A stretch of DNA of 27,514 bases, from positions 1 to 27,514 of the forward strand of contig PWNZ01000256.1 in NCBI GenBank assembly GCA_003564135.1, written 5' to 3'. Origin of the DNA: Candidatus Cloacimonadota bacterium (GTDB lineage: Bacteria > Cloacimonadota > Cloacimonadia > Cloacimonadales > PWNZ01). The notes below the pieces were generated by a model. The model ran no database searches. It saw only the letters and a list, made by a program, of their open reading frames with translations, and had not been told where the DNA came from. Both the position numbers and the translations under genes were made by a program. Positions 1 to 27,514 of this stretch are shown here, in pieces; positions within the stretch are counted from its first letter, which is position 1, and each line of letters starts with the position of its first letter.

Positions 1-112
1 AGCTCGCCGGACGAAGTACGGCAACTAGTCTTTTTAGAAGCTCGCCGGACGAAGTACGGCAACTAGTCTTTTTAAACTAGCTCGACGCAGTCAATATTAT
101 TGATAAGGTATT
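1..112. repeat. Left terminal repeat array: two tandem 38-bp units (1-38, 39-76; 28-bp core agctcgccggacgaagtacggcaactag plus T-rich 10-bp spacer), then a degenerate third unit and an inner segment (78-112). The whole block is the imperfect reverse complement of 27335-27490
   Basis: Direct inspection: units 1-36 and 39-74 are identical. The reverse complement of the right-end unit (agctcgccggacggagtacggccactag) matches the left core at 26 of 28 positions. Inner 78-112 matches the reverse complement of 27335-27380 at about 30 of 35 positions. Confidence 0.85.
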
Positions 113-375
113 AATGTTTAAAAGCGGCCATGTTCTCTTGGAGACCGGACAAGCTCGTGTCTGCAAAGTCCTGTCTTAGCGAGCACCATTGATAGAAGAT
201 CGATGTTTTATGATCTGAGAGACAATACTCTCGCTGATAGTCAGCTTAATCGATCGGAAGTGGACAAGCAGATTATTGGGTAAAGTTTAGCGGGGTTCGG
301 GATTATTTCTATCGTTCCGGGTCGGAGCACAAGGAGGTTTGGTTGCGAAACAGCAAAAAAAAAGAACAATAAGTT

Positions 376-402
376 TTGACAGGATACTAATCGAAGTAAT
401 AT
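376..402 (+). promoter_or_regulatory. Candidate sigma70-type promoter upstream of dnaE (-35 TTGACA 376-381, -10 TAATAT 397-402, 15-bp spacer)
   Basis: Hexamer matches seen in sequence. The spacer is shorter than optimal and nothing else supports the call. Confidence 0.25.
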
Positions 403-520
403 TGGTCTTCGATTGAGCATTTAGAACTTGCAGATGAAGGCTTTAGCCATGCTATATCTGCAATTGAGAACGTTTAACAACGTTTGCTCAACAAAAAAAA
501 GGAGATGATTTCGTGAAGAA

Positions 521-3500
521 ATGAGCTTTGTACACTTACATAACCATACCCAATATAGCGCCTTAGATGGTGCTTGCCGCATAGATAAAATGATCGATTT
601 AGCATTACAATATGACATGCCTGCTGTGGCCATAACAGATCATGGTACGATGTCCGGAGCGATCGATTTTTACTGTCAAGCCGCCAAGAAAGGGATCAAA
701 CCGATAATCGGGATAGAAGCTTACGTTATCGATTTTGACTATGATCATAGCAAATCCAAAAAGGCTAGGCGGAATCATTTAGTCTTGATAGCAAAAAATA
801 AGACCGGATATAATAACCTGATAAAACTTTCGTCAATATCTTACACGCAAGGGTTCTATTACAAACCGAGAATGAGCAAACAGCTTTTAGAAAAACATTC
901 GGAAGGATTAATATGTCTTTCCGCATGTGTACAAGGAGAGATTGCTCAACTGCTATTAGACGGACGTCATGAAGATGCCGTATACGCCGTTGAATGGTAT
1001 AAAAATGTATTCCGAGACAGCTATTATTTAGAAATAATGAAGCATGATCTGAGTGACGAAGATCTGGTTATGCCCAAAATTATAGAGCTAGCGCACAAAA
1101 CCGACACACCGTTAGTAGTCACCAACGATTGCCACTATCTGAAAAAAGAAGATGCAAAAGCTCATGACGTGTTACTATGTATCCAGACAGGCAAAACCAT
1201 AGACGATTCTTCGCGGATAAAATATGAAACCGATCAGCTATATTTCAAAACTGAAGAAGAAATGAGAGCACTGTTTCCTGAATGCCCCGAAGCTTATGAC
1301 AATTCAGTGAAGATAGCCGAATCAACAGATCTTAAACTTGAGTATGATACCTTTTTGCTGCCCAAAGTGGATTTGCCGGCGCACTATTCAACCAACAGTG
1401 AGTATCTTAGATCGTTATGCTATGAAAGCGCAGCAAAAAAATATGTACAGTTTTCACAAGATTATCAGCAAGATCCAAACAAGGCGAGTCGACTTGAAAT
1501 CGAAGAAAGGATTGATTATGAATTAGGCATTATCAAACGAATGGGTTTTGAGGATTATTTCTTGGTCGTCAAGGATCTGATTGACAGCACGCGGAAGAGA
1601 GGTATTCCTGTCGGTCCCGGCAGGGGTTCAGCGGCGGGTAGTATAGTCTCCTATTTATTAGAGATCACGTTAATGGATCCGATAAAGCATAATCTGTTAT
1701 TTGAACGTTTTCTGAATCCCGATAGAATAGAGATGCCTGATATTGATATAGATTTCTGTGCTGAAGGCAGGAATCAGGTCATTGAATACGTAGTAAATAA
1801 ATACGGTCGCAACAGTGTGGCTCAGATTATCACTTTCAACACCTTAGGGGCGAAGTCTGTGATTAAGGATGTAGCCCGCGTTTTAGGGGTGTCGCCTGCT
1901 GAATCGAATAGAATGACCAAACTTATGCCCTCAACTCCCAAGATCACCTTAGAAAAATGTATGCAGGAATGTCCGGAATTCGTCAAGCTTATGGAAAGCA
2001 CCGGGCAATATAGCTCAATTCTGAAATATGGTAAGGTGATAGAAGGCTTGATCAGGCAACACGGTATACATGCAGCCGGCGTTGTTATTGGTCCCGACGA
2101 TCTGTCAAACTACGTTCCGCTGTCAACCAGCAGCCAGAAGGGAAGCCAATCGACGGTTCTTGTGCAGTATGAAGGGAAGTGGCTCGACTATCTGAAGATG
2201 CTGAAGATGGATATTTTAGGGCTCAAGACATTGACAATAATCCGAAAAACATTGGAGCTGATTAATCAATCTCGGGGTATCGACATCGACATCCTAAAAG
2301 TTCCTACTGATGATAACAAAACCTATGAATTGTTTTCAAACGGATTAACCGACGGCATCTTTCAGTTTGAATCGGCCGGCATGAAAAAGCATCTCAAAGA
2401 GCTAAAACCTAATGAATTTTCGGATTTAGTAGCGATGGTGGCTCTATATCGTCCCGGGCCAATGCAGTTTATAGATACTTATATAAAAAGAAAATACGGA
2501 TTACAAGAAATCGAATATGATCATCCGCTGACAAAAAATGCCCTCAAAGAGACTTATGGAGTGATAATCTATCAGGAACAGGTGATGCAGATATCACGCG
2601 AGATGTGCGGTTTTTCCGGTGGTGAAGCCGATACTCTCAGGAAAGCAATGGGTAAGAAAATAATGGAAGTGATGGATAAACTCAAGCCTAAGTTCATTGA
2701 AGGGGGTAAAGCGAAAGGAGTTGAAGAGCATATAGTTAAGAAAGTTTGGGACAAGTGTCTTGATTTTGCCAAGTATGCTTTCAATAAAAGCCATTCTGTG
2801 TGTTATGCTTATGTGGCCTTCCAAACAGCTTATTTGAAAGCCCATTACCCGACAGAATTCATGGCAGCATTGCTTTCTCAAGAAAATGACCCCTCTAAGA
2901 TTCCGTATTTTCTCGAAGAGTGCAGAAATATGGGTATAGAAGTAATTCCACCAAACATTAACCGCTGTGAAAAAGAGTTTATTGTTCAAGGGAATAAGAT
3001 TCTTTTTGGCTTGCGGGCTATTAAAAATGTCGGTGAGGTAGCGATTCAAAGACTCTTAGAAGAGAGAGATGAAAATGGAGTTTTTACTGACTTTTTCGAA
3101 ATGTGTTCACGAGTTGATCCTATGGCAGTTAATAAAGCCGTCTTAGAAAGCCTGATCTATTCGGGAGCATTAGATGAACTTGCCGGTAACCGGCCACAAA
3201 AATTGGCAGCTCTCGAAGCAGCGGTAGAATACGGAAACAGTGTTAATAATGAAAAACGTAGCGGCCAGCAAACTCTGTTCAGCATTTTAGAAGAAGACGA
3301 TGACTCCGGGATCCCCACAGGGTGTAAGCCTGTTTTACCGGAGGTTAAAGATTGGACACTAAGTGAGAAATTGGAAAAAGAAAAAGCGATACTCGGCTTC
3401 TATTTGTCTGGTCACCCACTGTTTAAATATCGTCACGAACTCACCATATTTGCTAACTTAGATACCAAGAGATTTTTAGATAGAGGGCAGAAGGTTCCCT

Positions 3501-4024
3501 ACCCTATAATCATTGCCGGGGTAGTCAATATAATCAATTATAAAAAAGATTCTCGTAACAGACCATATTGCACAGCCGTTTTAGAAGATATGTACGGCAA
3601 GTTTGAATTAGCGATATTCGGCAAGGATGTAGAAAAGTATGACTCTACATTAAAATCTGATGGACTCTATATCATATCTGGTAAACCTTCGTCCTATAAC
3701 TATCAGCAGAATGGAAGTACTGATAATACAACTCTACGCATTGTGCCGGAAAAGATTATTCCGCTGGATGATCTGTCCCAGCATTTCACAGGTTCGCTAC
3801 ACCTAAATGTTGAAGAGGGAAAAATTTGTGACGGTTTGTATGATAAATTGATATCTTTAAGCAGCCGGCATCCCGGTAAGTTTGATCTTGTTCTCATAGT
3901 AACTACCAAAAAATTCGGATGTATAAAGATCACACCTCAAGATATAGCTGTTTTCCCCAATGAAGGGCTGAACAAAGCTTTGAAGGAAATGTTTGGCACA
4001 ACCGTAGCAGTCAAGGTAGGCTAA
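521..4024 (+). CDS. dnaE: DNA polymerase III alpha subunit
   Basis: 1167-aa ORF. N-terminal PHP domain (HLHNHTQYSALDGA...AITDHGTMSGAIDFY), polymerase core motifs and a C-terminal OB-fold region, with length and architecture typical of DnaE. TAA stop. Confidence 0.95.
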   Translation: MSFVHLHNHTQYSALDGACRIDKMIDLALQYDMPAVAITDHGTMSGAIDFYCQAAKKGIKPIIGIEAYVIDFDYDHSKSKKARRNHLVLIAKNKTGYNNLIKLSSISYTQGFYYKPRMSKQLLEKHSEGLICLSACVQGEIAQLLLDGRHEDAVYAVEWYKNVFRDSYYLEIMKHDLSDEDLVMPKIIELAHKTDTPLVVTNDCHYLKKEDAKAHDVLLCIQTGKTIDDSSRIKYETDQLYFKTEEEMRALFPECPEAYDNSVKIAESTDLKLEYDTFLLPKVDLPAHYSTNSEYLRSLCYESAAKKYVQFSQDYQQDPNKASRLEIEERIDYELGIIKRMGFEDYFLVVKDLIDSTRKRGIPVGPGRGSAAGSIVSYLLEITLMDPIKHNLLFERFLNPDRIEMPDIDIDFCAEGRNQVIEYVVNKYGRNSVAQIITFNTLGAKSVIKDVARVLGVSPAESNRMTKLMPSTPKITLEKCMQECPEFVKLMESTGQYSSILKYGKVIEGLIRQHGIHAAGVVIGPDDLSNYVPLSTSSQKGSQSTVLVQYEGKWLDYLKMLKMDILGLKTLTIIRKTLELINQSRGIDIDILKVPTDDNKTYELFSNGLTDGIFQFESAGMKKHLKELKPNEFSDLVAMVALYRPGPMQFIDTYIKRKYGLQEIEYDHPLTKNALKETYGVIIYQEQVMQISREMCGFSGGEADTLRKAMGKKIMEVMDKLKPKFIEGGKAKGVEEHIVKKVWDKCLDFAKYAFNKSHSVCYAYVAFQTAYLKAHYPTEFMAALLSQENDPSKIPYFLEECRNMGIEVIPPNINRCEKEFIVQGNKILFGLRAIKNVGEVAIQRLLEERDENGVFTDFFEMCSRVDPMAVNKAVLESLIYSGALDELAGNRPQKLAALEAAVEYGNSVNNEKRSGQQTLFSILEEDDDSGIPTGCKPVLPEVKDWTLSEKLEKEKAILGFYLSGHPLFKYRHELTIFANLDTKRFLDRGQKVPYPIIIAGVVNIINYKKDSRNRPYCTAVLEDMYGKFELAIFGKDVEKYDSTLKSDGLYIISGKPSSYNYQQNGSTDNTTLRIVPEKIIPLDDLSQHFTGSLHLNVEEGKICDGLYDKLISLSSRHPGKFDLVLIVTTKKFGCIKITPQDIAVFPNEGLNKALKEMFGTTVAVKVG

Positions 4025-4121
4025 CAGCGTGTCCCGAGATGATGTTAGAGATAAATAATACAGTGCGCACCTAACGAATGGTGATAGCGCTGAACCTACA
4101 AGACTAAAATGAGACAAAATA

Positions 4122-5288
4122 ATGGTTAAAATAAAAGAGCGAATGAGAAAAAGTTTTCTAGCCGTAGTCATAATGATGGTAATGGTTAGCCTTACTGCCT
4201 CATCGATAGAGTTTAGATCGGAGAATATAGGCGGCAGAATTGAAGGTTTGCTGCTGATTTCTTACAATGATTTTTTCTCTGAACAAACTGACCAGACGAT
4301 TGAGATAAATAACTATTTGTCAGTAAGCATTGTCACTAATGACCATGATATTGTTTATCAGGAGCAATTCCAAGTCATTATGAGTATAAATACTGATTCT
4401 CTACAAGGATTTCGATATCTTACGCTGTACGATGAATATTTTCCCTTAAAATTCTCAACCGAGATTGAGCCTGATGAATATGAATTAATAGTTACCCTCA
4501 ACTCTCACCGAACAAGTCAGAAAAGAACATATAGAGAAAAAGTAAATCTTCCGCAAGAAAAGAAAATCATCGGCTCTTCTTTGCTGGTAGCCCGGATTGA
4601 TGATTTCATGTTTGCCATAAGAGATAACCGATACTTAATAGATCGTTATGACGAGATCAAACTTTGGCAGCATTACAGTGAAACACCCGATACAACAAAG
4701 ATAGCCTTGTCAGTTGATGGTAAGAGCAAGCATGTATCCGTGTCAGAGATAAACGAACTATATGACAAGTTGCGGGGTATAGATGAGTTTACTATAGAAG
4801 TGCACAATAAATATAATGAGAAAACATTTAATTCTGAACCGGTATTCCCCACGATCAGTTTCTTTTTTCAAGAGCGCTTTAGCCCCGATCAACAATTGGC
4901 ACAATTGCGGAATATTCTCAATCATAACGAGTATCGTGAGTTACGTGGCTTAGAAAGCGATGAGTTGCAACAAGGTATTGATGAGTATTGGAATAGATTG
5001 GATCCTGATATTTATTCAGTTGACAATTATTACCAACGAGTTTTCTATAACAGAGTTATCTATGCGGATAGAAATTTCGGCATAAAAGGTTATTTAGAAG
5101 GTTGGGAAACCGACCGAGGTAAGATCTATATTAAATATGGCCCTCCGGACAACATATCTACCGATGCTTTCCCTATCGGTAGGAGTCCGAGGATAACATG
5201 GCACTATTACAGCATTAATAGGACATTTAACTTTTATGACTTGAGAGGATATGGACAGTATGAACTCAGAGAAAAATGGATGGATTAG
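4122..5288 (+). CDS. Secreted GWxTD-domain protein (function unknown), paralog 1
   Basis: 388 aa with an N-terminal signal peptide or TM segment. The C-terminal motif YLEGWETDRGKIYIKYGPPD matches the GWxTD domain signature, and there is an upstream EYWNRLDPD-type motif. It shares the C-terminal domain with the next ORF. Confidence 0.6.
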   Translation: MVKIKERMRKSFLAVVIMMVMVSLTASSIEFRSENIGGRIEGLLLISYNDFFSEQTDQTIEINNYLSVSIVTNDHDIVYQEQFQVIMSINTDSLQGFRYLTLYDEYFPLKFSTEIEPDEYELIVTLNSHRTSQKRTYREKVNLPQEKKIIGSSLLVARIDDFMFAIRDNRYLIDRYDEIKLWQHYSETPDTTKIALSVDGKSKHVSVSEINELYDKLRGIDEFTIEVHNKYNEKTFNSEPVFPTISFFFQERFSPDQQLAQLRNILNHNEYRELRGLESDELQQGIDEYWNRLDPDIYSVDNYYQRVFYNRVIYADRNFGIKGYLEGWETDRGKIYIKYGPPDNISTDAFPIGRSPRITWHYYSINRTFNFYDLRGYGQYELREKWMD

Positions 5289-6615
5289 ATACTTTGTAAC
5301 AGCACTGCTGGTGGCGGTAGTGTCGATAGCCGGTGCTAATGAGTTAAACATAGCCTTTGAACACAACAGGTTCTTAGATGATCAAGGAAACACGATTCAT
5401 CATTTCAACTATAAAGTTCCTAATAATCAATTAACTTTTGCTGAATCAGATGATGGATACTTAGCTTTGCTTGATGTGAAAATCAGTTCTGAAAAGGATG
5501 GAGAAGAAAAAGTACTCGATGAATTTACTCATCACATTGGAGTCAGAGAACAAAGAGCAGCTTTTTCTGAAGAGTTGTATTATCTTGATAAAATCCAACT
5601 CACTCTTGCTCAATCGGGATTAAATTTCCGTGTTGATTTCCAAGATCAGCTATCCGGCAAGCAATTTCAATGGTCGAGAACTTTAGAAAACTTGGATTCC
5701 AATAGCTTAGTTAGCGATATTGAGTTTTCACATCAGATATTAAGAGGGGTAGAGCATCCGGGATTAGAACAATTCTTGCGAGGCAATTATCAGTTTTATG
5801 TTGATCCGGCGCATATCTACAGGACAGAAGCTCAGGATACAGTCTTCTTTTATTACGAGATACAGAATCTTTATCCTGCTGTCGATGGTAATCATTACTT
5901 TGCCGAGGAAATCTTAATTTATAGCGATAAAGACACGCTGAAAATTGAAAATAGATATCAAGACCCTGATCCGTATGTAGATATGATGAAAGACATCCCA
6001 ATGGAGAAATTATCAACAGGTTACTTCAATGTCGAAGTCTCAATCACGGATATGGTTAGAAATATGACACATACTGCGAAAGACTACTTTGTCATAGCCG
6101 AACGTAGAACTCCTATCCAACGGCTTTTCCCTGATAATGAGACAGAATATAGGTTATTGAGATACTTTTTGCCCTCTTCTTATTTTAGAAACTGGGATGA
6201 GATGAGCACGAGAGCGCAGAATAACTTGATCGATAGGTTTTGGAGACAAAATGATCCCGTCCCACAAACTGAAGCAAATGAGTTTTTAGAAAACATCAGG
6301 CAGAGAATTGAATACGCTAATGAACAATTTCCTCACCATAGCGATGGATGGGAGACTGATCGCGGAAGGGTCTACGTGAGGCAGGGTGCACCTGACGATA
6401 TCGTCAGGGATAATATTGAAGGTGATATCAGGTTGACCAGAAGGGAATATATTGTGTGGAGGTATCACAGCTCTAATAAACTCTATCTTTTCATAGATCC
6501 ACAAGGTATGGGCAGCTTTCGGCTTATCTACAATAGGAACGATGACCGTGAGCAGACTGTGTCCAATTGGGAAAGATATGTCGGCGAAGATTTTGACATG
6601 AGTATTCTCGAATAA
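5251..6615 (+). CDS. Secreted GWxTD-domain protein (function unknown), paralog 2
   Basis: 454 aa with a signal-peptide-like N-terminus. The C-terminal HSDGWETDRGRVYVRQGAPDD and the DRFWRQNDP motif parallel paralog 1. It overlaps the upstream gene by 38 bp, and an alternative start at Met 5260 is possible. Confidence 0.6.
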   Translation: MDSMNSEKNGWIRYFVTALLVAVVSIAGANELNIAFEHNRFLDDQGNTIHHFNYKVPNNQLTFAESDDGYLALLDVKISSEKDGEEKVLDEFTHHIGVREQRAAFSEELYYLDKIQLTLAQSGLNFRVDFQDQLSGKQFQWSRTLENLDSNSLVSDIEFSHQILRGVEHPGLEQFLRGNYQFYVDPAHIYRTEAQDTVFFYYEIQNLYPAVDGNHYFAEEILIYSDKDTLKIENRYQDPDPYVDMMKDIPMEKLSTGYFNVEVSITDMVRNMTHTAKDYFVIAERRTPIQRLFPDNETEYRLLRYFLPSSYFRNWDEMSTRAQNNLIDRFWRQNDPVPQTEANEFLENIRQRIEYANEQFPHHSDGWETDRGRVYVRQGAPDDIVRDNIEGDIRLTRREYIVWRYHSSNKLYLFIDPQGMGSFRLIYNRNDDREQTVSNWERYVGEDFDMSILE

Positions 6616-6843
6616 TCCCACCTGTCTTATTCTGTGGTGTAAGAAAGTAAGAATTTAAAAAATCGATGTATTTGACTAGATCAGGATAATTAAATGACAA
6701 TAATAGGTAGAGAATTGCGACTGTTATTATTGCAGGCTTAAAATGGGAGATGTTGCCTTTAACAATAGCAAGGTTGAAATTTTTTTCTGGACAGTAAAAA
6801 CGTTAGGCATATTATTGCCTGAAAAAACGAAGCGAGGTGAAAT

Positions 6844-7188
6844 ATGAGCAGTTACCATGAACCGGTGGAAGAATTGAAAGCAAAAGATCGTGACTTCTCA
6901 AGAGCGCTTAATAGCCTCAAAGAAGAGATCGAAGCTGTCGATTGGTACCAACAACGTGCAGCAACAACTACAGATGAAGAGCTTAGAAAGATTGTCGAAC
7001 ACAATCGTGACGAAGAAATCGAACACGCTGTCATGACTCTCGAATGGCTCAGACGCAACATGCCGGGTTGGGATGAAGAAATGCGTACCTATTTATTCAC
7101 AACTAAACCGATCACCGAACTCGAAGATGATGAAGAAGAAGAAGAAACTAACAAAGACGGTGATCTTAAAATCAGAAACCTCAAATAA
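6844..7188 (+). CDS. Encapsulin cargo: ferritin-like protein (Flp) with C-terminal targeting peptide
   Basis: 114 aa, helical, with E-rich and ExxH metal-binding motifs (EEIEAVDWY and DEEIEHAVMTLEW). An acidic poly-Glu linker (EDDEEEEE) precedes a C-terminal GDLKIRNLK, which resembles family-1 encapsulin cargo-loading peptides. It sits 9 bp upstream of the encapsulin shell gene, and has the RBS GAGGTGA. Confidence 0.75.
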   Translation: MSSYHEPVEELKAKDRDFSRALNSLKEEIEAVDWYQQRAATTTDEELRKIVEHNRDEEIEHAVMTLEWLRRNMPGWDEEMRTYLFTTKPITELEDDEEEEETNKDGDLKIRNLK

Positions 7189-7197
7189 GGAGAGATT

Positions 7198-7992
7198 ATG
7201 GACTTACTTAGACGTCATTTAGCACCTATAAACAATGATGCCTGGGAAGAGATTGATGAGCAAGCGGTGATATCTCTTAAGCAGTTCTTATCAGCTAGAA
7301 AAGTCATTGATGTTGAAGACCCAAAAGGATGGGATTTTTCATCAGTTACTACAGGTAGAATGACACTGGGAAATGACAAAGCAGGTGTCTCCTACGGAGT
7401 CAGAGAATCGTTACCTGTAATAGAACCAAGGATCAGTTTTACCCTCAATAAGTGGGAATTGGATAATATATCAAGAGGTGTCGAAGACCCTGATTTGGAC
7501 ACTTTGCAAGAAGCAGCTCAAAAAATTGCCTTCTTCGAGGAGAATATACTTTATAATGGGTTTAAAAAACATGGCATCAAAGGCTTACTAGACACGGATA
7601 ATAAGGCCGAAAACCTACCTAAAGATACTTCTAAATGGCCGGATACTATCATTGAAGCTGTATATAAGCTTAACCAAGCAGCAATTGAAGGTCCCTATGC
7701 TTTAGTGTTGTCACCTAAGCTCTGGCAAGGATTTAACTATCTGACTAGTTGCGGTTGTTCTAAGCGAATGCAGTTAGAAACACTTATCGGAGGCCCGGTA
7801 GTTTTGTCTCACTTTATCAAGGACGGTCTCTTAGTGTCGATAAGAGGCGGTGATTTTAAGATGAGCATCGGCAGTGACTTCTGTATCGGATATGAAAATT
7901 CGACCAAAGAGGATGTAACTCTCTACTTAACAGAATCATTTACCTTCCAAAACCTTGAGCCTAATGGCGTTATCCCCATTAAAGCAGAATAA
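7198..7992 (+). CDS. Family 1 encapsulin nanocompartment shell protein (linocin M18-like, HK97 fold)
   Basis: 264 aa. The N-terminus (LRRHLAPINNDAWEEIDEQA), VIDVEDPKGWDFSSVTTG, GPYALVLSPKLW and the C-terminal LVSIRGGDFKMSIGSDFCIGYENSTKEDVTLYLTESFTFQ are collinear with T. maritima and M. tuberculosis encapsulins. Strong RBS TAAGGAGAG. Confidence 0.9.
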   Translation: MDLLRRHLAPINNDAWEEIDEQAVISLKQFLSARKVIDVEDPKGWDFSSVTTGRMTLGNDKAGVSYGVRESLPVIEPRISFTLNKWELDNISRGVEDPDLDTLQEAAQKIAFFEENILYNGFKKHGIKGLLDTDNKAENLPKDTSKWPDTIIEAVYKLNQAAIEGPYALVLSPKLWQGFNYLTSCGCSKRMQLETLIGGPVVLSHFIKDGLLVSIRGGDFKMSIGSDFCIGYENSTKEDVTLYLTESFTFQNLEPNGVIPIKAE

Positions 7993-8008
7993 TAAAGTAA
8001 AACTTTAC

Positions 8009-8049
8009 GAGCCTTGCATTAATTTTTTCCGGTGCAAGGCTCATTTTCG
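8009..8049 (+). terminator. Candidate rho-independent terminator of the encapsulin operon
   Basis: A 10-bp perfect stem (gagccttgca / tgcaaggctc) with a 14-nt loop, followed by ATTTTCG. It overlaps the nominal ATG of the next ORF, which argues that the real start of that gene is downstream (ATG 8083). Confidence 0.45.
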
Positions 8050-9109: not shown

Positions 9110-9123
9110 AAGAAGGAGAAGTA

Positions 9124-9681: not shown

Positions 9682-9715
9682 ATCTGAGCAATTTATAGTT
9701 ATTATGCATTGCTGG

Positions 9716-10085
9716 CCTGTAAGACAGGAGTTTCTATGTTTAAAATTGATTTACCAGTTATCAATTACCAGTGGTTCCGGAACGCTGACTTTCAGTCGGC
9801 TGGCACGCCGGCTTTAGCCGGTAATTTAATCATCCCCTCGGGTGTCTTCATTATTCATTCTTCATTCTTCATTCTCGCAGTCATGGACGTTTACTATGTT
9901 TAAAATTGATTTTCAGCCTCCGAGAACACCGAAAAAAGCACCGAATAATGGCCTTCACAGCTGACTCTCGTCTCTTTCGTTAATGTTATAATTATTAGCT
10001 CGGGTGTCATCATATTTTGTTCATTGTTCTTGGTTCATTGTTCTTCGTTGAGGCTGTCATGGACGTTTACTATAATGCATTTCTG
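9716..10085. repeat. Diverged tandem duplication (periods about 160 and 176 bp, 2.2 copies) carrying TTCAT/TCTTCAT-type microsatellites in the dxs upstream region
   Basis: Anchors repeat as ctatgtttaaaattgattt (9734, 9894) and gtcatggacgtttactat (9880, 10056). The tcgggtgtc(t/a)tcat... ttcattSttc blocks repeat at 9836-9876 and 9998-10050. Confidence 0.8.
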
Positions 10086-10188
10086 GAGGCCCGGATCTAG
10101 GCTTCACTGCAAATTTTCGATTAATGGTTGACATCAACACCTTAAATTAAGAAGATATAAAAAAATAGCTGTTGCAAGGTTGAAAGTA

Positions 10189-17952: not shown

Positions 17953-18009
17953 TCAGGTCAAAATTGTCGGCCCGAAATTACTGAAAATATAGAAATAAAG
18001 GATAGAGTT

Positions 18010-19120
18010 ATGGAAAAAAATGAATTATTGCAATCTCTCGATCAGTTGAGTGACAAGCTAAAAGAAATCAGGAGGTATCTTTGATGTAGGTAAAGTAATA
18101 TCAAATCTTACCGACCTACAGACAAGAAGCAATCAGCCAGGATTCTGGAACGATCAAAGTCGTGCTCAAAAAATACTAAAAGAAATAAATTCTTATCAAG
18201 CTCAACTTGATAGAGATAATCATCTTTTAGAAATGCAAGAAGAGTTAGCTACTTATAAGGAGTTATTAGCTGAAGACGAAGCAGGAACCTTAGTACAAGA
18301 AGCCCTTAACAAGTTGCAAGAATACCGGAAGATTAGTGAAACTGTAGAAATTGAGTCTCTGCTAGGTCAAGAAACCGACCAAAATAGTGCTGTCCTGATA
18401 ATTCATCCGGGTGCAGGTGGTACCGAATCTCAGGACTGGGCGCAGATGCTTTATCGGATGTACACAAAATGGGCAGAAAGCAAAGGGTATAAAGCTTCAG
18501 TCGATGACTTGCAGCCCGGAGAAGAAGCAGGCATAAAAAGCGTTACTATGGAGATTGAAGGTGACTATGTTTACGGCTATTTAAAAGCCGAGATAGGAAT
18601 ACACCGCTTAGTAAGGATTTCGCCTTTTAATGCTCAAGGGAAACGACAGACGTCGTTCGCCTCGGTTTTTGTCTATCCGATCATTGACGAGACGATTGAA
18701 GTAGAAATAGATTCAAATGATCTCAAGATAGACACCTACAGAGCAAGTGGTGCAGGGGGACAGCATGTTAATACAACTGACTCTGCCATCAGGATTACTC
18801 ACCTACCTACGAACATTGTTGTCCAGTGCCAGAAAGAAAGGTCGCAAATGAAAAATAAAGGAACAGCTATGAAGCTTTTAAGAGCTAGACTTTATAAGCA
18901 TTATGAAGACATTAAAGAGAAAGAAAAACTAAAGATGGAGCAAACTAAAACCGAGATTGGTTGGGGGAATCAGATAAGGTCTTATGTTTTTCAGCCCTAT
19001 CAAATGGTTAAAGATCATCGTACAAACTATGAAGTGGGCAATACCGAGAAAATTATGGATGGAGATTTGGATGGGTTCATTTATGCTTATCTCAAGGAGG
19101 CCGTTAGGTCGGCAAATTAA
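18010..19120 (+). CDS. prfB: Peptide chain release factor 2, expressed through a programmed +1 ribosomal frameshift (frame 0 from 18010 to 18081, +1 frame from 18083)
   Basis: The frame-0 ORF MEKNELLQSLDQLSDKLKEIRRYL ends at TGA 18082-84 inside the canonical motif AGGAGG-TAT-CTT-TGA. The +1 frame continues into the 295-aa RF2 body with SPF and GGQ motifs (RISPFN, SGAGGQHVNTTDSA). Confidence 0.9.
18070..18084 (+). promoter_or_regulatory. prfB autoregulatory +1 frameshift site (internal SD AGGAGG, slippery CTT, in-frame TGA)
   Basis: The sequence aggaggtatctttga is directly visible, and its spacing is identical to the E. coli RF2 site. Confidence 0.85.
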
Positions 19121-19157
19121 AGCTTATACTTTTTAATGAAATATAAAGGTGAAGACT

Positions 19158-19892: not shown

Positions 19893-19920
19893 AAATTCCA
19901 GTAGGGATGGAGAAAATTTG

Positions 19921-20721: not shown

Positions 20722-20869
20722 GCTTGACATGAATTTGTGTGGATCAGTATCCGGTAACCATGCTGAAACAAACTCAAACACCGATCAGAGCCAACAACCC
20801 ATCTTCATTGAGAGCCAAAGCTGAAAATGGACAGCGCCGGTTAAATTATGCTAAGCAGTTGAGGGTTAA

Positions 20870-22939
20870 ATGAACACCGCTAAAGTTATGACATTTTTTT
20901 GGTTGATTATCATGCAATTTGCCACGATTAATCTCTATAGTGATGAAGATCTGCCCTTAATAAATGAGTGGAACGTTTATCCTCTTGACACCATGTATTA
21001 TTGGCCCGACGATCTGTTCCCGGATATTATCAAAATTTACGATGATTATCCTCATCTCGTCGATTGGCACATTGTTGGTGAAAGTAGCACGCATAAGCTC
21101 CCTATCTATGCTTTTAGGCTAACTAATAAGCAAAACCAAACACCAAAACCTTCGCTGCTACTGCATGGACAACACCATTCAGAAGAACCGATTGGCGTAG
21201 AAATCGCCATGCAGATTGCCAGATATTTACTGGAGAATTATGAGACAGAGCCTTTTGCTAATAAGCTGCTGGATGAATTCGAGATCTGGATAGTTCCTAC
21301 ATCCAATCCTGAAGGGTTCAGGGTAGTTAACTCCGGCGAGAATCGACTGAAAAGAAAGAATGAAACCGACACCAATTTTAACGGTATCAGAGAATTACAT
21401 CTGGATGGAGTTGATTTGAACCGGAACTATGACTTCAACTGGCACAGTAGCGGCGGCAACGACCCGGAAAGCCCATACTTCAAGGGCTATGAGCCTGCCT
21501 GCCAGAGAGAAACCAGAGCAATGCAAACCTTTTATGCTCAACGAGGCTTTAACTTAGCCTTTTTCTATCATAGTTCGGCGACAGGAGCTTACTCCGAGCG
21601 GATTTTTTTCCCTTGGAGGTGGGGAGATGAGCTATCACCAGATTACCGGGAAATGCTCGAGTTAGCTAAGGTTTTAGCTTCCAAGCTGCCCAAAACATAT
21701 CAGGATGGTAATTATGAGGTTCATAGGTTGAATACCTCAAAAAGAAGTTTTGCCCGGGACTATATATATTCCCAACATAACACACTTGCCTGGTTGATAG
21801 AAATAGGTGGTAATTCACCTTTCGGAGAAGGGATAGTAAATCCGCCTAATCATGTCTTGCAAAAGCATATCGATATCCATATAGATGCCATGCTCAATCT
21901 TCTTCAGCACTACCGCAAGAACCTTTACAGCTTTCAAGTGCTGGATATTGATGATAAGCCGGTATCAGGGATAGAAGTGATAGTAGATGACAAAAAGAGC
22001 ACCTACAAAAATTACATCACTACCTGTGAAGAAGGTTATTTCTTCCATTATTTTCTGCCGGGGAATGACTTTAATACTGTGGAAATAGCTGGTATGGAAA
22101 CTTTCACTTTTAGTTTGCAAGATATTCCCAATAATCATATTCAGATTAAAATTGACCTCACCGAACAATGCTCTAAGGCTTATGTTGAATCGTTAAACGA
22201 AAATGAAGCTATCATACTAGCAAACCCGGTATTCCAATCTTTCGATCGTTTGGGTATTAATGCGTGGGGGAAAGGCACACTTACAAGAGATCGTTTGCAA
22301 GGGCAATTGGCTTATATTTCTCTTCTAAAAAATAACACTATCTCTTATCGCAGATCAACCGGTATAGAAGACGGCTCCATATCTATCCCTTGGCTCCCTG
22401 TTGACATTATCGATAAAGGGGTTCTTACTGTCCAAATAAATGACATATCACCGCTGACCGATGAGCTGAAAGCAGCAAATAAGATAGCTTTTCTTAGCGA
22501 TAAGCAAGAGGTTTTATCTTACTGTATAAAACCTACGCCTGTGAGCAGATACTATTTACATCCTGCTACTAAGGTCGGGATCGATTACTCCCTCTATCCC
22601 GCCGGAGATAATGATTACCAAATCCAAAAAATAAAAATCTCTGCAGAACCGGTTGATAACCAAGAGGAACTGGAGATTTCTTTATATGACGGAGCCGAAC
22701 CCCTGATGAAAACAACAGCGATTTATAACGAACAAGGACTCTATGAAGCCGAAATAAACAAGAAATTTCCCGACAATCTCTTCTTAGTTATTACCAACAA
22801 TGGCACCGGAACTGTGTCTATCCGGCGTGATACTGTTCAAGATGTTAACTCCCGGAGGACCGAGGTTTTCTTTTCATACTGGCAGGCTTTAGAAGGTCCC
22901 GATTTAGCAGTGGATATTCATTTGTTTAAAAAAGAATAG
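20870..22939 (+). CDS. Secreted M14-family zinc carboxypeptidase-like protein with a long C-terminal extension
   Basis: Signal peptide. HxxE zinc motif (HGQHHSEEPIG), the substrate-binding NRNYDFNW motif, a second His region (FFYHSSATG) and a Glu near WLIEIGG. About 350 aa of unknown domains follow. Confidence 0.7.
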   Translation: MNTAKVMTFFWLIIMQFATINLYSDEDLPLINEWNVYPLDTMYYWPDDLFPDIIKIYDDYPHLVDWHIVGESSTHKLPIYAFRLTNKQNQTPKPSLLLHGQHHSEEPIGVEIAMQIARYLLENYETEPFANKLLDEFEIWIVPTSNPEGFRVVNSGENRLKRKNETDTNFNGIRELHLDGVDLNRNYDFNWHSSGGNDPESPYFKGYEPACQRETRAMQTFYAQRGFNLAFFYHSSATGAYSERIFFPWRWGDELSPDYREMLELAKVLASKLPKTYQDGNYEVHRLNTSKRSFARDYIYSQHNTLAWLIEIGGNSPFGEGIVNPPNHVLQKHIDIHIDAMLNLLQHYRKNLYSFQVLDIDDKPVSGIEVIVDDKKSTYKNYITTCEEGYFFHYFLPGNDFNTVEIAGMETFTFSLQDIPNNHIQIKIDLTEQCSKAYVESLNENEAIILANPVFQSFDRLGINAWGKGTLTRDRLQGQLAYISLLKNNTISYRRSTGIEDGSISIPWLPVDIIDKGVLTVQINDISPLTDELKAANKIAFLSDKQEVLSYCIKPTPVSRYYLHPATKVGIDYSLYPAGDNDYQIQKIKISAEPVDNQEELEISLYDGAEPLMKTTAIYNEQGLYEAEINKKFPDNLFLVITNNGTGTVSIRRDTVQDVNSRRTEVFFSYWQALEGPDLAVDIHLFKKE

Positions 22940-22949
22940 CAAGGGTTAT

Positions 22950-24644
22950 ATGAAAAAGATAAATTCGCTTATATTCTACAACAAACAGCTATTTTTTCTG
23001 ATTACGGTGCTTCTAATTCAGACAGGGATAATGTTGGCTGAAGATTCTTATATCCATGTCAGTTTGCTTGCCGGCGAGACAAAAAATGAAACGGATATAC
23101 TGCATCTGACGGAGCGGAAGGATGTGGACAAGCTCTTTTCGGTTGAATCTTTTACCGAGCCTCATTTTAGATTCGCTTTCAATAGCCGGGCTGCCTTTAC
23201 AGATGCCTTGAAAACATTTCTAACAGAAACCGAAAAGCCCGGAAACTTAATAGATTATCAGGTAGTTGACAAAAAGATGTCCGGCAGGTTTAAATTTAAT
23301 ATAGGCGGCGGGGTTGACTATCACTCCAACTTAGACAACTCTTACCTTCATCCTTACCGCAGATTCTATGTTCAAGCTAATTTCCATAACCGGCTGTTGA
23401 TGTGGGCTGAATGGTGGGCCGGTAGATTTCAAGGTGATGAAGATGATCTTGACTTTGCTGAAGAGACTTCGCCTCTTATAAAAGGATGGTATAAGTCTCA
23501 TAGAAATGAGGGACAGGCCTACACTAACCTTAACAATATTACCGGACAGATAAGCTATCTGTTCGGGTTCGGTAATCTATCTGTCGGCAGAGGAAATCAT
23601 CTCATCGGAGATAATATTAGCGGAAGCATAATACTTAATGATCAAGCTAATGAATACGGGTATTTCAGCAGCGAGTTAGAGTTCGGCAAGCTAAAACTTT
23701 CTTTCTTGCATGCGAGTCTGATACCCAATGAAAGAGATCCGATATACTCCGATCCCTACTACGGAACTCATTTCGTCGATAAATTCTTGGCGCTACATCA
23801 GTTAGACTATCAACCATGGCCAAACCTGAACCTATATTTCGGCGAACAGGTAACCTATGCCAACAGAGGGATTGATGTCAACTATCTGCTGCCGCACACA
23901 TTCTACCGCATAACCGAACACAACCTGCATGACCGTGATAGTGTCAGGATATATGCGGGCGGCAGATGGCAGGCTTACAATATAGACCGGAATCCAATCT
24001 CTCTAACATTATACGGCAGCTTATTGCTCGATGAATTAAGAAAAAGTGAGATTTTCAGTGACTGGTGGGGCAACAAATATGCACTGCAAGGAGGTGTTTC
24101 CACTGAATATCTTCCCGGCTTTATTCACAATGAAAATAAACCAATCAGAACGACTGTCGAGCTGACAGCTGTCAGGCCTTGGACTTATACTCATAGAAAC
24201 TATAAGACAAACTTTTCGCATGATGGAATAGGCCTAGGCTATCCCGGAGGGAACAATATTATTCAGAGAACTTTTAGTGAAGAAAAAAAAGAATTTATTC
24301 AAGACCCTTCAAGCGGCAGCAACATCGTTCTGGGTGCTGCCGAACTAACCTTCCCGTTATTACCCTACCTGAAAATCAGTCAATACTTGTCATACAGCGA
24401 GCAGGGAAGCTTAGGAAATTGCTGGTCTCTGAACTATAATGACGACCGTAAAGACGAAGATGGGAATTTCTTAGAAACTGCCGAATGGCTGGAAGGAGAT
24501 GTTACCAAGCGGTTTTTCTCGAGATCGGTGCTGGATTTTTCACTATTAGCGCATCACAGTATCAAGTTGGGCTACCAAACAGAAACAGCGACAAATGAAG
24601 AGACAAAAAAGGAACTGATAATCAGCTACAGTTTTATGTTTTGA
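22950..24644 (+). CDS. Putative outer-membrane (beta-barrel-like) protein, function unknown
   Basis: N-terminal signal or TM segment, Gly/Tyr/Asn-rich alternating composition and a C-terminal aromatic residue (…YSFMF) typical of OM barrel C-termini. It resembles capsule-assembly or porin-like proteins, but I do not recognise the family. Confidence 0.4.
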   Translation: MKKINSLIFYNKQLFFLITVLLIQTGIMLAEDSYIHVSLLAGETKNETDILHLTERKDVDKLFSVESFTEPHFRFAFNSRAAFTDALKTFLTETEKPGNLIDYQVVDKKMSGRFKFNIGGGVDYHSNLDNSYLHPYRRFYVQANFHNRLLMWAEWWAGRFQGDEDDLDFAEETSPLIKGWYKSHRNEGQAYTNLNNITGQISYLFGFGNLSVGRGNHLIGDNISGSIILNDQANEYGYFSSELEFGKLKLSFLHASLIPNERDPIYSDPYYGTHFVDKFLALHQLDYQPWPNLNLYFGEQVTYANRGIDVNYLLPHTFYRITEHNLHDRDSVRIYAGGRWQAYNIDRNPISLTLYGSLLLDELRKSEIFSDWWGNKYALQGGVSTEYLPGFIHNENKPIRTTVELTAVRPWTYTHRNYKTNFSHDGIGLGYPGGNNIIQRTFSEEKKEFIQDPSSGSNIVLGAAELTFPLLPYLKISQYLSYSEQGSLGNCWSLNYNDDRKDEDGNFLETAEWLEGDVTKRFFSRSVLDFSLLAHHSIKLGYQTETATNEETKKELIISYSFMF

Positions 24645-24663
24645 TTGACGGCAAGCATCAATA

Positions 24664-25764
24664 ATGAGCTATCTTATATATCTTTATTCATTGGCACTAA
24701 TAGCAGCAACTATCGGGATTCTAGCTAACACTAAAAGTAAAAAAAACAAAGACCGGAACTATTCCATCGTAATTGTTGCCCGTAATGAGCAAGATTACCT
24801 ACCGTTTCTGCTGCAGTCGCTCAGTAAGTTAAAATACCCCGATGATATGTACGAGGTGATATTAGTCGATGATGGCTCACAGGACGATACTAACAGCATA
24901 ATGACTGCCGCTTCCGAAGCTTTTCATAACTATAAAGTCATAAAAATAGATAACAAACAGTTACCGGGGAAAAAACAAGGACTGCAAACCGGACTAGAAA
25001 CAGCCAAGCATGAAATTTTATTGTTAACAGATGCCGATTGTATCGTTTCACCGGATTGGTTGGAAAAGATTAATGAATATTGGAACGATGAAACTGCTAT
25101 GCTCATCGGTTTCGCTCCCGAGATTTCCTGGCCGCAATTAATATCCGGCTATTATGCTGATCAGCTTAAAGCCGCATCCTTAGAAAACCTTAAAAGTTAT
25201 ATAACCTATTCTTTTCGTCGTTTTGTAAGTTTAGTAGCGGCCGGCATATATGCTGCATCTGCCGGGCTTAAGATCCCCTTCAGCTGTGCAGGAAGAAACT
25301 TAGCCGTAAGAAGAGAATTGCTGCATCAATTAGGCGGTTATACATCATTTAATAGATATAAATCGGGAGATGACAAACAGGCACTCAATTTGATAAAAAA
25401 AAATAAAGGGGTAGTCCGGTACTGCCCGGCTGAAACTGTTAATACGTTGCCCGGACTCGGATCATTCCATCGGCAACAGAAAAGAAGGTTTGGTAAGATC
25501 AAGATTTCATCACCTTTCTTCGCCTTGGTGACAATTATGTTTATGCTGTTTTATCTATATCTGCCCTTCTATCTCATTTTCAACTTAGACTATACGGCAG
25601 CAATAATGGTTTTTGGTGCTGCTATTCTGATCTGGTCGGTTAACTTGTTAAAGCATCGTCAAAGACTACGGGCTGTCGAGATATTGTTTTTGCTCGTCTA
25701 TCCTTATTATTTCATCTATTTCACTTTAATAGGTTCTTTTCTTGCACACAAATGGAAGGATTAA
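24664..25764 (+). CDS. Family 2 glycosyltransferase with C-terminal transmembrane segments
   Basis: GT-A fold motifs (IVIVARNEQDYL, EVILVDDGSQD, the DxD-like TDADC) followed by 3-4 hydrophobic helices. Confidence 0.8.
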   Translation: MSYLIYLYSLALIAATIGILANTKSKKNKDRNYSIVIVARNEQDYLPFLLQSLSKLKYPDDMYEVILVDDGSQDDTNSIMTAASEAFHNYKVIKIDNKQLPGKKQGLQTGLETAKHEILLLTDADCIVSPDWLEKINEYWNDETAMLIGFAPEISWPQLISGYYADQLKAASLENLKSYITYSFRRFVSLVAAGIYAASAGLKIPFSCAGRNLAVRRELLHQLGGYTSFNRYKSGDDKQALNLIKKNKGVVRYCPAETVNTLPGLGSFHRQQKRRFGKIKISSPFFALVTIMFMLFYLYLPFYLIFNLDYTAAIMVFGAAILIWSVNLLKHRQRLRAVEILFLLVYPYYFIYFTLIGSFLAHKWKD

Positions 25765-25768
25765 AGGC

Positions 25769-26635
25769 ATGAAGAAAACGGTTTTCACAATTATAAAACT
25801 TAGTATAACCGCTATTATACTCTTCTTCATTTTCCGAAGGATAGACCTATCACAAACGATAAGGCTAATTACCGGTATCTCCGCAAAAACGATATTGCTG
25901 CTGCTGTTAACCGCTGTCCTCAAGCAGGTCACTCAGTTTGTTAACTGGAATTTCTGCCTGAGAATCAATGACGGTTATCGGCCGGAAGTGTCAGAAACTC
26001 TGAACAGTATGTTTATCGGCTCTGCTCTGAGGTTTTTGATTCCCGGTGGGCATGCTACCTATGGGAAAGTATATTATTTGAATTACAGCAAAATAGGGAC
26101 TGCTATTTCTATTACTATGGAAAAGTTTATGCTCACCTGGTCTGTGCTGTTGTTTGGAGCTATAGCGACAATGTTCTATTTCACTAGGTTCAGCCTGATT
26201 CTGCGAATAGTTATCCTGACAGTTGTTGCTATTATACCATTACTATTGAGCAAAGTGAGGTTTGTCTTCCCTAAATATTCAGGCTATTTTGACAACTGCC
26301 TCAATATCGTACCGGTTATGACCATTGTTCAAGCAGTCTACGTATCTCTGACAGTTTTGCAGTACTACATGATCATAAACAACTTTGTATGTCTCCCTTT
26401 CACTGCGGCCTTGTTAGCTGTACCACTCATCCTCACCGCCAACACCATACCGATAACATATTCCGGGTTGGGTATGCGTGAATCGTTTTCTATCTATATG
26501 CTTTCCAATTTTGGCATATCGCCCGAAATCGCAGTAACTGCTTCTCTACTCGTGTTCATGATCAATGCTGTCATACCGGCAATCATAGGAATAATACTGA
26601 TCCTGACATCCTCAATCGCTGCTAAAAAAAAATAG
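25769..26635 (+). CDS. UPF0104 / lysylphosphatidylglycerol-synthase-TM-region-like (flippase-like) integral membrane protein
   Basis: A polytopic membrane protein beginning MKKTVFTIIKLSITAIILFFIFRRIDL, typical of this family. ATG 25769 with an AAAGG RBS. The GT2 gene ends at 25764, so the two are adjacent and may be translationally coupled. Confidence 0.6.
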   Translation: MKKTVFTIIKLSITAIILFFIFRRIDLSQTIRLITGISAKTILLLLLTAVLKQVTQFVNWNFCLRINDGYRPEVSETLNSMFIGSALRFLIPGGHATYGKVYYLNYSKIGTAISITMEKFMLTWSVLLFGAIATMFYFTRFSLILRIVILTVVAIIPLLLSKVRFVFPKYSGYFDNCLNIVPVMTIVQAVYVSLTVLQYYMIINNFVCLPFTAALLAVPLILTANTIPITYSGLGMRESFSIYMLSNFGISPEIAVTASLLVFMINAVIPAIIGIILILTSSIAAKKK

Positions 26636-26703
26636 CTAACTGCTATGGTCGACTGCTTCTTAAGCTGAGTGCGAATATGTCTGATCACTGAATTCTTAAC
26701 CCG

Positions 26704-26726
26704 TGAACCGAGTTTACGAACTCGGT
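26704..26726. repeat. Hairpin (8-bp stem accgagtt/aactcggt, loop tacg) that is a solo remnant of the terminal-repeat junction
   Basis: 26704-26718 tgaaccgagtttacg is the exact reverse complement of 27484-27498 cgtaaactcggttca, which borders the right repeat array. Confidence 0.6.
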
Positions 26727-27273
26727 AAAGCCCAATCTTCTCTTCTATTACACTGGATTAGCCGGCTTCAATAGATATCAATACACCTTGAGCTGTATAA
26801 AAATTGCTACTATCCAGTCATCTACTATTACTTGTCTCACTTTATCGTCAATAATGCAGTAGTAGTTAAATCTGCCAAAGATTGCTATAAGTGTAACGGT
26901 AATCTGCATTTATGCGGCATATTCTTCCTCCTCATCTTGCCGGAAAAGAAAAGCCGCTAATTGCCGGATAAATCCAGATTGTCAGACAAATGCTTCAGCT
27001 TTTGCACAGGATTTGTACTTTTATTACAAGACTGAAGACAGCGTACCGGACAGCCGATTAACTAAGTCACTGACTAATAATGTGTTTGAGAAGAGAATCA
27101 GGATAGAGATCAGGTATAGTTAATTAATTATGAGGTCTGTAATCCTCAAGCATAATTATCTTGACGTTGTAGTGATCAGGTATAGTTAGTAGGACATTGG
27201 GATGGAGGATCATTTACAACGGGCTAAAGCCTATGCAAAAATTAAGGAACACGCTCTTCTAACCATTGAAGTA

Positions 27274-27325
27274 TCTTTCATATAACTAGTAGTCGTTTTA
27301 TCCCGACTACTAGTTATATGAAAGA
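27274..27325. repeat. Perfect 22-bp palindrome (tctttcatataactagtagtcg / cgactactagttatatgaaaga) with an 8-nt spacer
   Basis: Seen directly. There are no mismatches, no flanking T-tract, and it lies 10 bp inside the right terminal repeat. Confidence 0.85.
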
Positions 27326-27334
27326 GATAATTAG

Positions 27335-27490
27335 CACTTTATCAATAACATTGACTGCGTCGAACTCGTTTAATAAAGATTAGTGGCCGTACTCCGTCCG
27401 GCGAGCTCGTAAAAAAACTAGTGGCCGTACTCCGTCCGGCGAGCTCGTAAAAAAACTAGTGGCCGTACTCCGTCCGGCGAGCTCGTAAAC
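27335..27490. repeat. Right terminal repeat array: inner segment (27335-27380) plus three tandem 38-bp units (27381, 27419, 27457), each with core tagtggccgtactccgtccggcgagct and spacer cgtaaaaaaac. It is inverted relative to 1-112
   Basis: Exact 38-bp periodicity seen in sequence. It is the reverse complement of the left-end units with 2 mismatches per core. Confidence 0.85.
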
Positions 27491-27514
27491 TCGGTTCATA
27501 TTTTTTTTGGCAGA

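Follow-up and report, generated by a model that had tools for sequence, protein, structure and literature searches.

Bacteria of several kinds have intergenic repeats that stand alone and are built around a tandem middle module. The STAR elements of Staphylococcus aureus are GC-rich direct repeats about 40 bp apart, with 14-bp motifs and variable spacers, lying between the genes of a lower-GC genome, and the MIRU loci of mycobacteria carry tandem 40–100-bp units at several intergenic loci, in variable copy number, inside operons and overlapping small open reading frames (ORFs). The BOX element of pneumococci exists in well over 100 copies. It is a small, non-coding intergenic element of the form boxA–boxB(n)–boxC, in which fixed end modules enclose a middle module whose number changes readily (PMC3049150). 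Here we describe a module of a distal leader, tandem 38-bp units and a trailer, two inverted copies of which form the two ends of contig PWNZ01000256.1 in the assembly GCA_003564135.1 (Candidatus Cloacimonadota bacterium). The contig was analysed as a window of 27,514 nucleotides, and positions 1–27514 of this window are the entire contig of the metagenome-assembled genome (MAG). By analogy, the module appears to resemble most closely the repeats of the BOX, STAR and MIRU type. Similar to BOX, it has fixed end modules around a tandem middle, here leader–38-bp unit(n)–trailer, but BOX has terminal inverted repeats, target-site duplications and a stem-loop, whereas the present module has no self-complementarity and no inverted repeats of its own, and is seen in two copies. 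As opposed to STAR and MIRU, the whole 38-bp unit is invariant and is followed by a defined 37-bp trailer. We count the module among the intergenic tandem-repeat modules, a broad class, as one that found no match in any of the collections searched; it represents an unrecorded repeat family in a poorly sampled phylum.

Inverted arrays of a 38-bp unit

Tandem Repeats Finder reports a period of 38 bp with 100% matches at both ends of the window, with 1.9 copies at the left (1–74) and 2.9 copies at the right (27381–27489), and a separate periodicity check gives identical limits for both arrays. A pattern for the 28-bp core has five matches in the window, two on the + strand at the left and three on the − strand at the right, and none in 100 dinucleotide-preserving shuffles. 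The perfect inverted 38-bp periodicity at both ends is far beyond chance. These results bear out the inverted tandem units described in an earlier sequence-only reading of this DNA, but move the limits of the repeats from 1–112 and 27335–27490 to 1–115 and 27330–27489, with a further 25 nt on the distal side at the right.

When aligned as reverse complements, the two arms (1–115 and 27445–27330) are 87% identical over 116 columns with one indel, and their homology stops abruptly on the inner side, after ...TAAT at 115 and 27330. Within each array, all 38-bp units are identical, the 10-bp spacer included. Between the arms, identity is 33/38 in the unit, 26/28 in the core and 32/37 in the trailer, and the longest unbroken stretch of identity is 14 bp. 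The module is complete at the right, where a distal leader is followed by the 38-bp units and the 37-bp trailer; the left end shows units and trailer. Read on the unit strand, the right arm starts with the leader TCTGCCAAAAAAAATATGAACCGAGTTTACG, continues through two full units AGCTCGCCGGACGGAGTACGGCCACTAGTTTTTTTACG and a third unit with a variant spacer ending in ...CTAATCTTTATTAAACG, and closes with the trailer AGTTCGACGCAGTCAATGTTATTGATAAAGTGCTAAT. The two units of the left arm carry the variants GAAG and GCAAC and the spacer TCTTTTTAGA; a variant spacer TCTTTTTAAACT and the trailer follow. The left trailer begins like a unit and becomes AT-rich; it holds a near-palindrome, TCAATATTATTGA, and, on the opposite strand, the −35-like hexamer TTGACT. 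The coordinates of all parts are collected in Table 1. The DnaE encoded in the window is found at 100% identity on a single NCBI contig, which has the window's own length. Because the window is the whole contig and starts inside the left array, that array is truncated. The two and three units counted by the sequence-only reading are indeed seen, but the contrast in copy number that it drew between the ends therefore carries no information.

Table 1 Features of the two repeat arms and of the right-hand flank (window coordinates)
Feature	Coordinates	Strand	Description
Left array	1–74	+	1.95 perfect copies of AGCTCGCCGGACGAAGTACGGCAACTAGTCTTTTTAGA; 28-bp core with 61% GC plus T-rich spacer; cut by contig start
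Left inner flank	75–115	+	Variant spacer end AACT plus 37-bp trailer AGCTCGACGCAGTCAATATTATTGATAAGGTATTAAT
Solo inverted copy of right-array leader/first-unit junction	26704–26726	+	26704–26724, 20/21 identical, E = 0.001
Perfect palindrome	27274–27325		22-bp stem, 8-nt loop; TCTTTCATATAACTAGTAGTCG / TTTTATCC / CGACTACTAGTTATATGAAAGA; −21.2 kcal/mol, z = −9.7 (DNA fold)
Right inner flank	27330–27380	−	37-bp trailer 27330–27366 (32/37 vs left) plus variant innermost spacer 27367–27380
Right array	27381–27489	−	2.87 perfect copies of AGCTCGCCGGACGGAGTACGGCCACTAGTTTTTTTACG; core with 68% GC; non-repeat sequence on both sides in the contig
Right distal leader	27490–27514	−	25 nt; on the + strand weak hairpin ~27479–27497, −5.1 kcal/mol, then T8 at 27501–27508

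The cores are 61–68% GC against a background of 40%. They are as GC-rich as the sequence-only reading had stated, but the genome around them is not strongly AT-rich. The description of the 28-bp core as non-palindromic also stands, as single units (z = 0.0 and 0.47) and whole 189-nt arms (z = +1.18 and +0.21) fold no better than their shuffles. Repetitive extragenic palindromes (REP), bacterial interspersed mosaic elements (BIME) and miniature inverted-repeat transposable elements (MITE) are likewise short, non-coding intergenic repeats that commonly fragment assemblies. They are, however, imperfect palindromes or carry terminal inverted repeats, whereas the unit and the arm here fold like shuffled sequence; the module, which lacks both a hairpin and terminal inverted repeats of its own, is not of the MITE/REP-like kind that had been proposed.

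Other array types were considered and rejected. Clustered regularly interspaced short palindromic repeats (CRISPR), already dismissed by the sequence-only reading, have unique spacers of about 26–72 bp. The spacers here are 10 bp long and identical, so that the full 38-bp unit is invariant within each array; there is no cas gene among the window proteins and no Rfam CRISPR-DR match at E ≤ 1. An array of intrinsic terminators was rejected as well: the best stem of the unit is 4 bp, its T-run begins 8 nt after that stem, and terminator scans make no call within either array. Enrichment of palindromic tetranucleotides, as in a restriction-site decoy or polylinker, is not significant (P = 0.09–0.24).

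Origin of the module and of the contig ends

The organism belongs to the Cloacimonadota, and not to a Bacteroidota-like lineage as had been supposed: the best named relatives of its DnaE are from Cloacimonadota (55–63% identity), and the closest overall are in Logan assemblies, at 84%, 72% and 69%. In relatives whose DnaE is 84%, 72%, 69% or 65% identical, the DNA upstream of dnaE is free of the array, and conservation in the end regions is limited to the dnaE promoter and the 5′ untranslated region. The array is therefore a recent, lineage-specific acquisition or expansion. In the 84% relative, gene order matches at both ends of the block, and the contigs end 292 bp upstream of dnaE and, on the other side, 88 bp downstream of the last gene, with the break at the identical base in two independent samples, which suggests that the block edges in this relative are also repeats, or difficult or variable DNA. 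The ends of its contigs are not inverted repeats of each other.

We tentatively favour a reading, to which we give somewhat less than an even chance, in which the contig ends are two copies of a lineage-specific intergenic tandem-repeat module that expanded by slippage at a TTTA microhomology, and at which the assembly broke. Two diverged, inverted copies would occupy long intergenic DNA on either side of a block of co-directional housekeeping genes, and each array may have grown and been kept uniform by slipped-strand mispairing or unequal exchange between TTTA/T-run microhomologies around the GC-rich core. Such a process would explain why the units are 100% identical within an array and just 87% identical between arrays. 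It would also explain why the internal spacers are hybrids of the flank that follows the unit and the end of the leader. The leader and every internal unit of the right arm end in the same 6 nt, TTTACG. In the left arm, TCTTTTTA followed by GA is the internal spacer; it matches the innermost spacer, TCTTTTTA followed by AACT, as far as TTTA and then switches. These hybrids are the footprint of a duplication at TTTA, and the duplication model predicts that the unseen left leader ends in ...TTTAGA.

The product of the last gene is also encoded on a 946-bp contig, which stops at 26648, in JGI metagenome 3300000563 (SL_3KL_010_SED), a name that points to a sample of soda-lake sediment; the source of the DNA is probably Kulunda soda-lake sediment. 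A soda-lake study, in our attribution likely the one from which the contig came, assembled with MEGAHIT at k 21–131 in steps of 10, and contigs 2.5 kb or longer were binned (PMC6146748). At the right, 27380 is the last base specific to the locus, and its distance of 134 nt from the contig end is approximately one k-mer at the maximum k of 131, a near-match to which we give little weight. A repeat that broke the assembly at both ends, one of the options listed by the sequence-only reading, fits a window that is a whole contig. The assembly graph would have branched at the repeats, owing to heterogeneity in copy number or between alleles, to further copies or to variable flanking DNA, and the block would then have emerged as one contig bracketed by both copies. 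The module would neither move the enclosed genes nor serve RecA-mediated inversion well, and any effect that it has is probably a by-product on neighbouring transcription and not that of a dedicated machine. It most likely marks the point at which short-read assembly stopped, and most likely is neither a transposon nor the end of a chromosome, nor a switch for inversion. If the arrays are mere minisatellites, they could be variable-copy-number markers for strain typing, and breakers of assemblies, in a soda-lake lineage.

Several points weigh against this preferred reading. The periodic or shared bases, 74 at the left and 134 at the right, fit no k in 21–131 exactly, and the assembler crossed the 109-bp right array, so the array itself was no stop there. 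The unit length, copy number and hairpin with U-run match those of type III antitoxin arrays, which by analogy suggests a specific function that a repeat module leaves unaddressed. Finally, the copies seen are the two arms and one 21-nt fragment, all within the contig, so that the dispersed repeat family of the sequence-only reading is not demonstrated. Species genomes, JGI metagenomes, IMG/VR, plasmids and phages yielded no other copy, although diverged copies could be missed. The core pattern AGCTCGCCGGACGNAGTACGGCNAC has no match in 185,579 species genomes (one genome per species), JGI metagenome contigs or IMG/VR, and the trailer pattern has none in JGI metagenome contigs or IMG/VR; these were exact-pattern scans, in which a copy diverged at a specified base would be missed. 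Blastn against plasmids and phages found nothing, and a loose 17-mer of the core gave 13 single matches in viral contigs, about the chance expectation. A loose three-unit pattern hit more than 119 loci among the matches listed in genomes, mostly high-GC ones; the 25 lowest-GC loci inspected among these listed matches are unrelated tandem repeats, and blastn of the 38-bp unit against the fetched loci showed no similarity in any. Searches of the literature turned up no relevant report of a named repeat in Cloacimonadota.

Repeats placed exactly at the contig ends, with no copy found elsewhere, would also be produced by an artefact of assembly or library preparation. We consider this very improbable, as the differences between the arms recur at the same positions in each unit and extend to 5/37 trailer positions, as expected of natural copies that evolve independently, and a third, partial copy lies inside the contig at 26704. 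To our knowledge, the repeats do not resemble Illumina, Nextera or 454 adaptor sequences.

The abrupt inner boundaries bear on a further explanation, in which a larger element, present in several copies and lying beyond the contig, would have the arms as no more than its innermost, diverged edges; it could be an insertion sequence, a transposon, a prophage or another duplicated region. In a transposable element, one terminus is an imperfect inverted repeat of the other. The two contig ends would then be the two termini of the element, and the 38-bp units would be subterminal binding sites for a recombinase or transposase. Contigs end most often because of multi-copy elements, and a unique segment between two copies should end in imperfect, outward-facing inverted repeats as this one does, with a sharp inner boundary (115 and 27330) and homology that reaches the contig limit on the outer side. 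The ends of Tn7, Mu and IS21 are similarly imperfect inverted sequences with several direct repeats. Subterminal sites unequal in number at the two ends are known from Tn7 and Mu-type ends, and a −35-like hexamer that points into the element, as the one in the trailers would, is common in insertion-sequence ends; both count in favour of such an element. The sites at known transposon ends, however, are about 20 bp long and conserved at the contacted bases only, not 100% identical 38-bp units with their spacers, and no transposase is encoded between the arms. The tips (ATTA...) match no insertion-sequence family that we can name, no related sequence was found in the collections searched, and identical copies should leave equal de Bruijn overhangs, whereas these are 115 and 185 bp. 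On balance we regard a larger element as unlikely, though a serious candidate.

Likeness to type III antitoxin arrays

The most specific alternative, judged by analogy, comes from toxin–antitoxin systems of type III. Antitoxin repeats in toxIN loci have a mean length of 38.1 nt (31–62) in a mean of 2.8 copies (1.9–5.6), mostly perfect (Blower et al. 2012, PMC3401426), and the loci are ordered as array, short palindrome or terminator and toxin, with 1–50 bp between the parts (PMC3401426). The arms of the present contig could be two paralogous loci of this kind, read outward (+ at the right, − at the left), with their toxin genes just off the contig. The trailer would then be a promoter region, the 38-nt repeats an antitoxin RNA with an A5–A7 tract in each unit, and the weak hairpin with U8 an attenuating terminator, past which, beyond the contig end, a gene for an endoribonuclease toxin of the ToxN/AbiQ, CptN or TenpN kind would begin. 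Variable defence islands would flank the block, and variability between strains would break the assembly.

What the arms share with the antitoxin RNA arrays of ToxI and its relatives is a non-coding array of some 2.8 perfect tandem repeats, each about 38 nt long, with a short palindrome, weak here, and a U-run after it. The right array, 38 nt repeated perfectly 2.87 times, and the left, with at least 1.95 copies, both fall within the published ranges (PMC3401426). The hairpin and U8 directly follow the right array, with 3 nt between hairpin and U8, and every unit of the outward transcript has an A-run (A7 at the right). The −35-like TTGACT is kept in both trailers. The module is missing from relatives, as accessory DNA would be, and the contigs of the 84% relative, which in two samples break at either edge of this block, are consistent with variable flanks.

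On the other side, no toxin gene, the part that defines such a system, is in view, as the contig ends 25 nt past the right array (6 nt past the T8 of the leader) and inside the left array. At −5.1 kcal/mol (z = −1.2), the hairpin is weak and falls below the criteria of terminator scans, and inspection of the sequence shows no acceptable −10 element 16–18 nt downstream of TTGACT in either arm. There is no Rfam match to a known antitoxin RNA at E ≤ 1. A 38-bp period in about three copies is unremarkable for any minisatellite, and two paralogous loci that exactly bracket a housekeeping block, in inverted orientation, are a demanding coincidence. We therefore hold type III loci to be rather improbable here. 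If the arms did encode such antitoxin RNAs, a type III-like locus in Cloacimonadota, which we did not find among the phyla listed in the surveys consulted, would have been found from the RNA side alone, and loci of this kind could be recognised at contig edges by their signature of array, hairpin and U-run.

The enclosed genes and the flanks

Between the arms lie 21 non-nested ORFs of at least 80 aa, all on the + strand (521–26635). Scans of the window ORFs with NCBIfam and Pfam assign DnaE (521–4024), two GWxTD proteins, an encapsulin with a ferritin-like cargo protein, an ankyrin protein and an AhpD-like protein, in addition to Dxs, MnmE, RuvB, HtrA, TrmB, dGTPase, RF2, UppS and CdsA, an M14 peptidase, a glycosyltransferase, a flippase-like protein and two unknowns. 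These scans find no transposase, integrase, cas, rep or par genes among the window proteins. Nor is there among them an invertase or recombinase, a dnaA, tus or rtp-like gene, a protein-primed polymerase, a terminal protein or a telomere resolvase. The non-coding flanks are likewise free of coding remnants: six-frame translations of the 408-bp and 700-bp flanks give a single weak Pfam match (E = 0.08, far under the gathering threshold), and the 695-bp non-coding stretch that precedes the right arm has neither coding remnant nor Rfam match. With 21 housekeeping and envelope ORFs on one strand and no transposase or integrase, the sequence-only reading was right to see no classical transposon.

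The polarity of the two arrays around this co-directional block would suit arrayed protein-binding sites, either iteron- or centromere-like or acting as polar barriers to replication forks or transcription. The core is GC-rich, non-palindromic (hence polar) and set at a fixed 38-bp spacing, the arrays point in opposite directions on the two sides of a block whose genes are all co-directional, and perfect conservation extends to the spacing. The 43-bp repeats of F sopC and the 37-bp iterons of IncN plasmids are comparable in length, and form head-to-tail, near-perfect protein-binding arrays beside rep or par genes, DnaA boxes and AT-rich unwinding elements. Unlike these plasmid arrays, the present ones stand in a chromosomal context, with no rep, parA/parB, tus or rtp-like gene in the window, and with DnaA boxes that match at chance level, form no cluster and do not occur near the arms. 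The window has no dif-like site. Across all 20 genes, the GC skew at third codon positions (GC3 skew) stays flat, with noise, and therefore the bracket contains no terminus; the bulk GC skew changes after 20 kb, which reflects the composition of the proteins and not a terminus. In addition, 38 bp is about 3.6 helical turns, which puts successive sites out of phase, and the absence of the array at the same locus in relatives argues against a conserved chromosomal function. Binding sites are thus an improbable explanation. A fork trap of the Tus/Ter or RTP type was rejected, with no switch in strand composition and no dif, and so was an iteron-type origin or oriC, with no rep or dnaA gene and DnaA boxes at chance and none near the arms; the iteron-like repeats listed by the sequence-only reading are not supported as an origin.

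Inverted arrays at both ends of a complete contig also recall a real small replicon, either linear with telomere-like inverted arrays or circular through a quasi-palindromic double array. All genes are co-directional, the contig stops 25 nt past an array that was fully crossed, and its last three bases, AGA, are the last three of a left-type spacer. The end-to-start joining into one large palindrome that the sequence-only reading had proposed rests on these three terminal bases. The right leader reads ...GAGTTTACG followed by AGCTCG, and by homology the left leader should end in ...TTTAGA. The last bases of the window, ...TTTTGGCAGA, differ (...GGCAGA), a mismatch that weakens the idea of a right end running into a left-type unit and hence of a circular palindrome. 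The ends also share no overlap, and a circular contig from a de Bruijn assembler is expected to have a terminal overlap. The cargo is core chromosomal (dnaE, prfB, ruvB, dxs, uppS, cdsA), the dnaE–GWxTD part sits within an ordinary 53.7-kb chromosomal contig in a relative, and the window encodes no replication initiator, protein-primed polymerase or telomere resolvase. As noted above, the contig ends of the 84% relative are not mutual inverted repeats. A separate replicon with dnaE, prfB, ruvB and dxs, bounded by arrays as in some linear mitochondrial genomes, would mean a segmented genome in a free-living Cloacimonadota; we judge both the replicon and this consequence extremely improbable. 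On the face of it, the contig is bracketed by imperfect inverted repeats yet is neither a transposon nor a complete linear genome, a caution for pipelines that take inverted terminal repeats as a mark of completeness.

Two related sequences in inverted orientation, 27.3 kb apart, could also recombine to turn the 27-kb block around and so serve as a switch; the sequence-only reading had suggested an inversion of this kind. Such a switch is very doubtful. The longest identity of 14 bp is under the minimal efficient processing segment for RecA-dependent recombination, reportedly put at ~23–27 bp in E. coli by Shen and Huang in 1986. No invertase or recombinase gene is present, an inversion would reverse 21 co-directional genes including dnaE, and the arms have diverged without homogenising each other.

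Two further structures lie between the last gene and the right arm. The solo copy at 26704–26726 folds into a clean hairpin whose stem is 8 bp long (ACCGAGTT-TACG-AACTCGGT, z = −3.1), 69 nt beyond the stop codon of the last gene; it may be the source motif of the array leader, or a repeated terminator-like hairpin. The perfect palindrome at 27274–27325 is set 4 bp inward of the right trailer; neither of its strands has a U-run, and it has no counterpart at the left arm. Rfam gives no match in the whole window at gathering thresholds; at E ≤ 1, the end regions match only eukaryotic snoRNA and miRNA models, on this 22-bp palindrome and far under gathering scores. In the same stretch, at 27092–27188, direct repeats of TAG(A/T)GATCAGGTATAGTTA stand 66 bp apart with a 13-bp tandem repeat alongside.

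Upstream of dnaE, the 72% relative has GrpB as a neighbour; this GrpB has no close orthologue, and the lone candidate contig from NCBI is unrelated. The −35 element of the dnaE promoter, TTGACAGGA (376–403), is conserved in relatives with 65–84% DnaE identity, which indicates a probable standard promoter of the sigma-70 type in the lineage. Directly downstream of dnaE are the two genes for GWxTD-domain proteins, in an order that is kept in relatives, and at 6844–7992 is a family 1 encapsulin shell gene, preceded by the gene for its ferritin-like cargo. Between the AhpD-like gene and dxs, at 9700–10100, a segment of ~160–176 bp occurs as a tandem duplicate of ~75% identity, in which the heptamer TCTTCAT recurs in runs and small hydrophobic ORFs begin with MFKID... 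and end with ...AVMDVYY; these could be duplicates of a small-peptide gene or a leader region. Finally, within 18011–18240, prfB carries the classical programmed +1 frameshift site, AGGAGG TAT CTT TGA, at ~18071–18086, and the ORF list therefore holds just the C-terminal 295 aa of its product.

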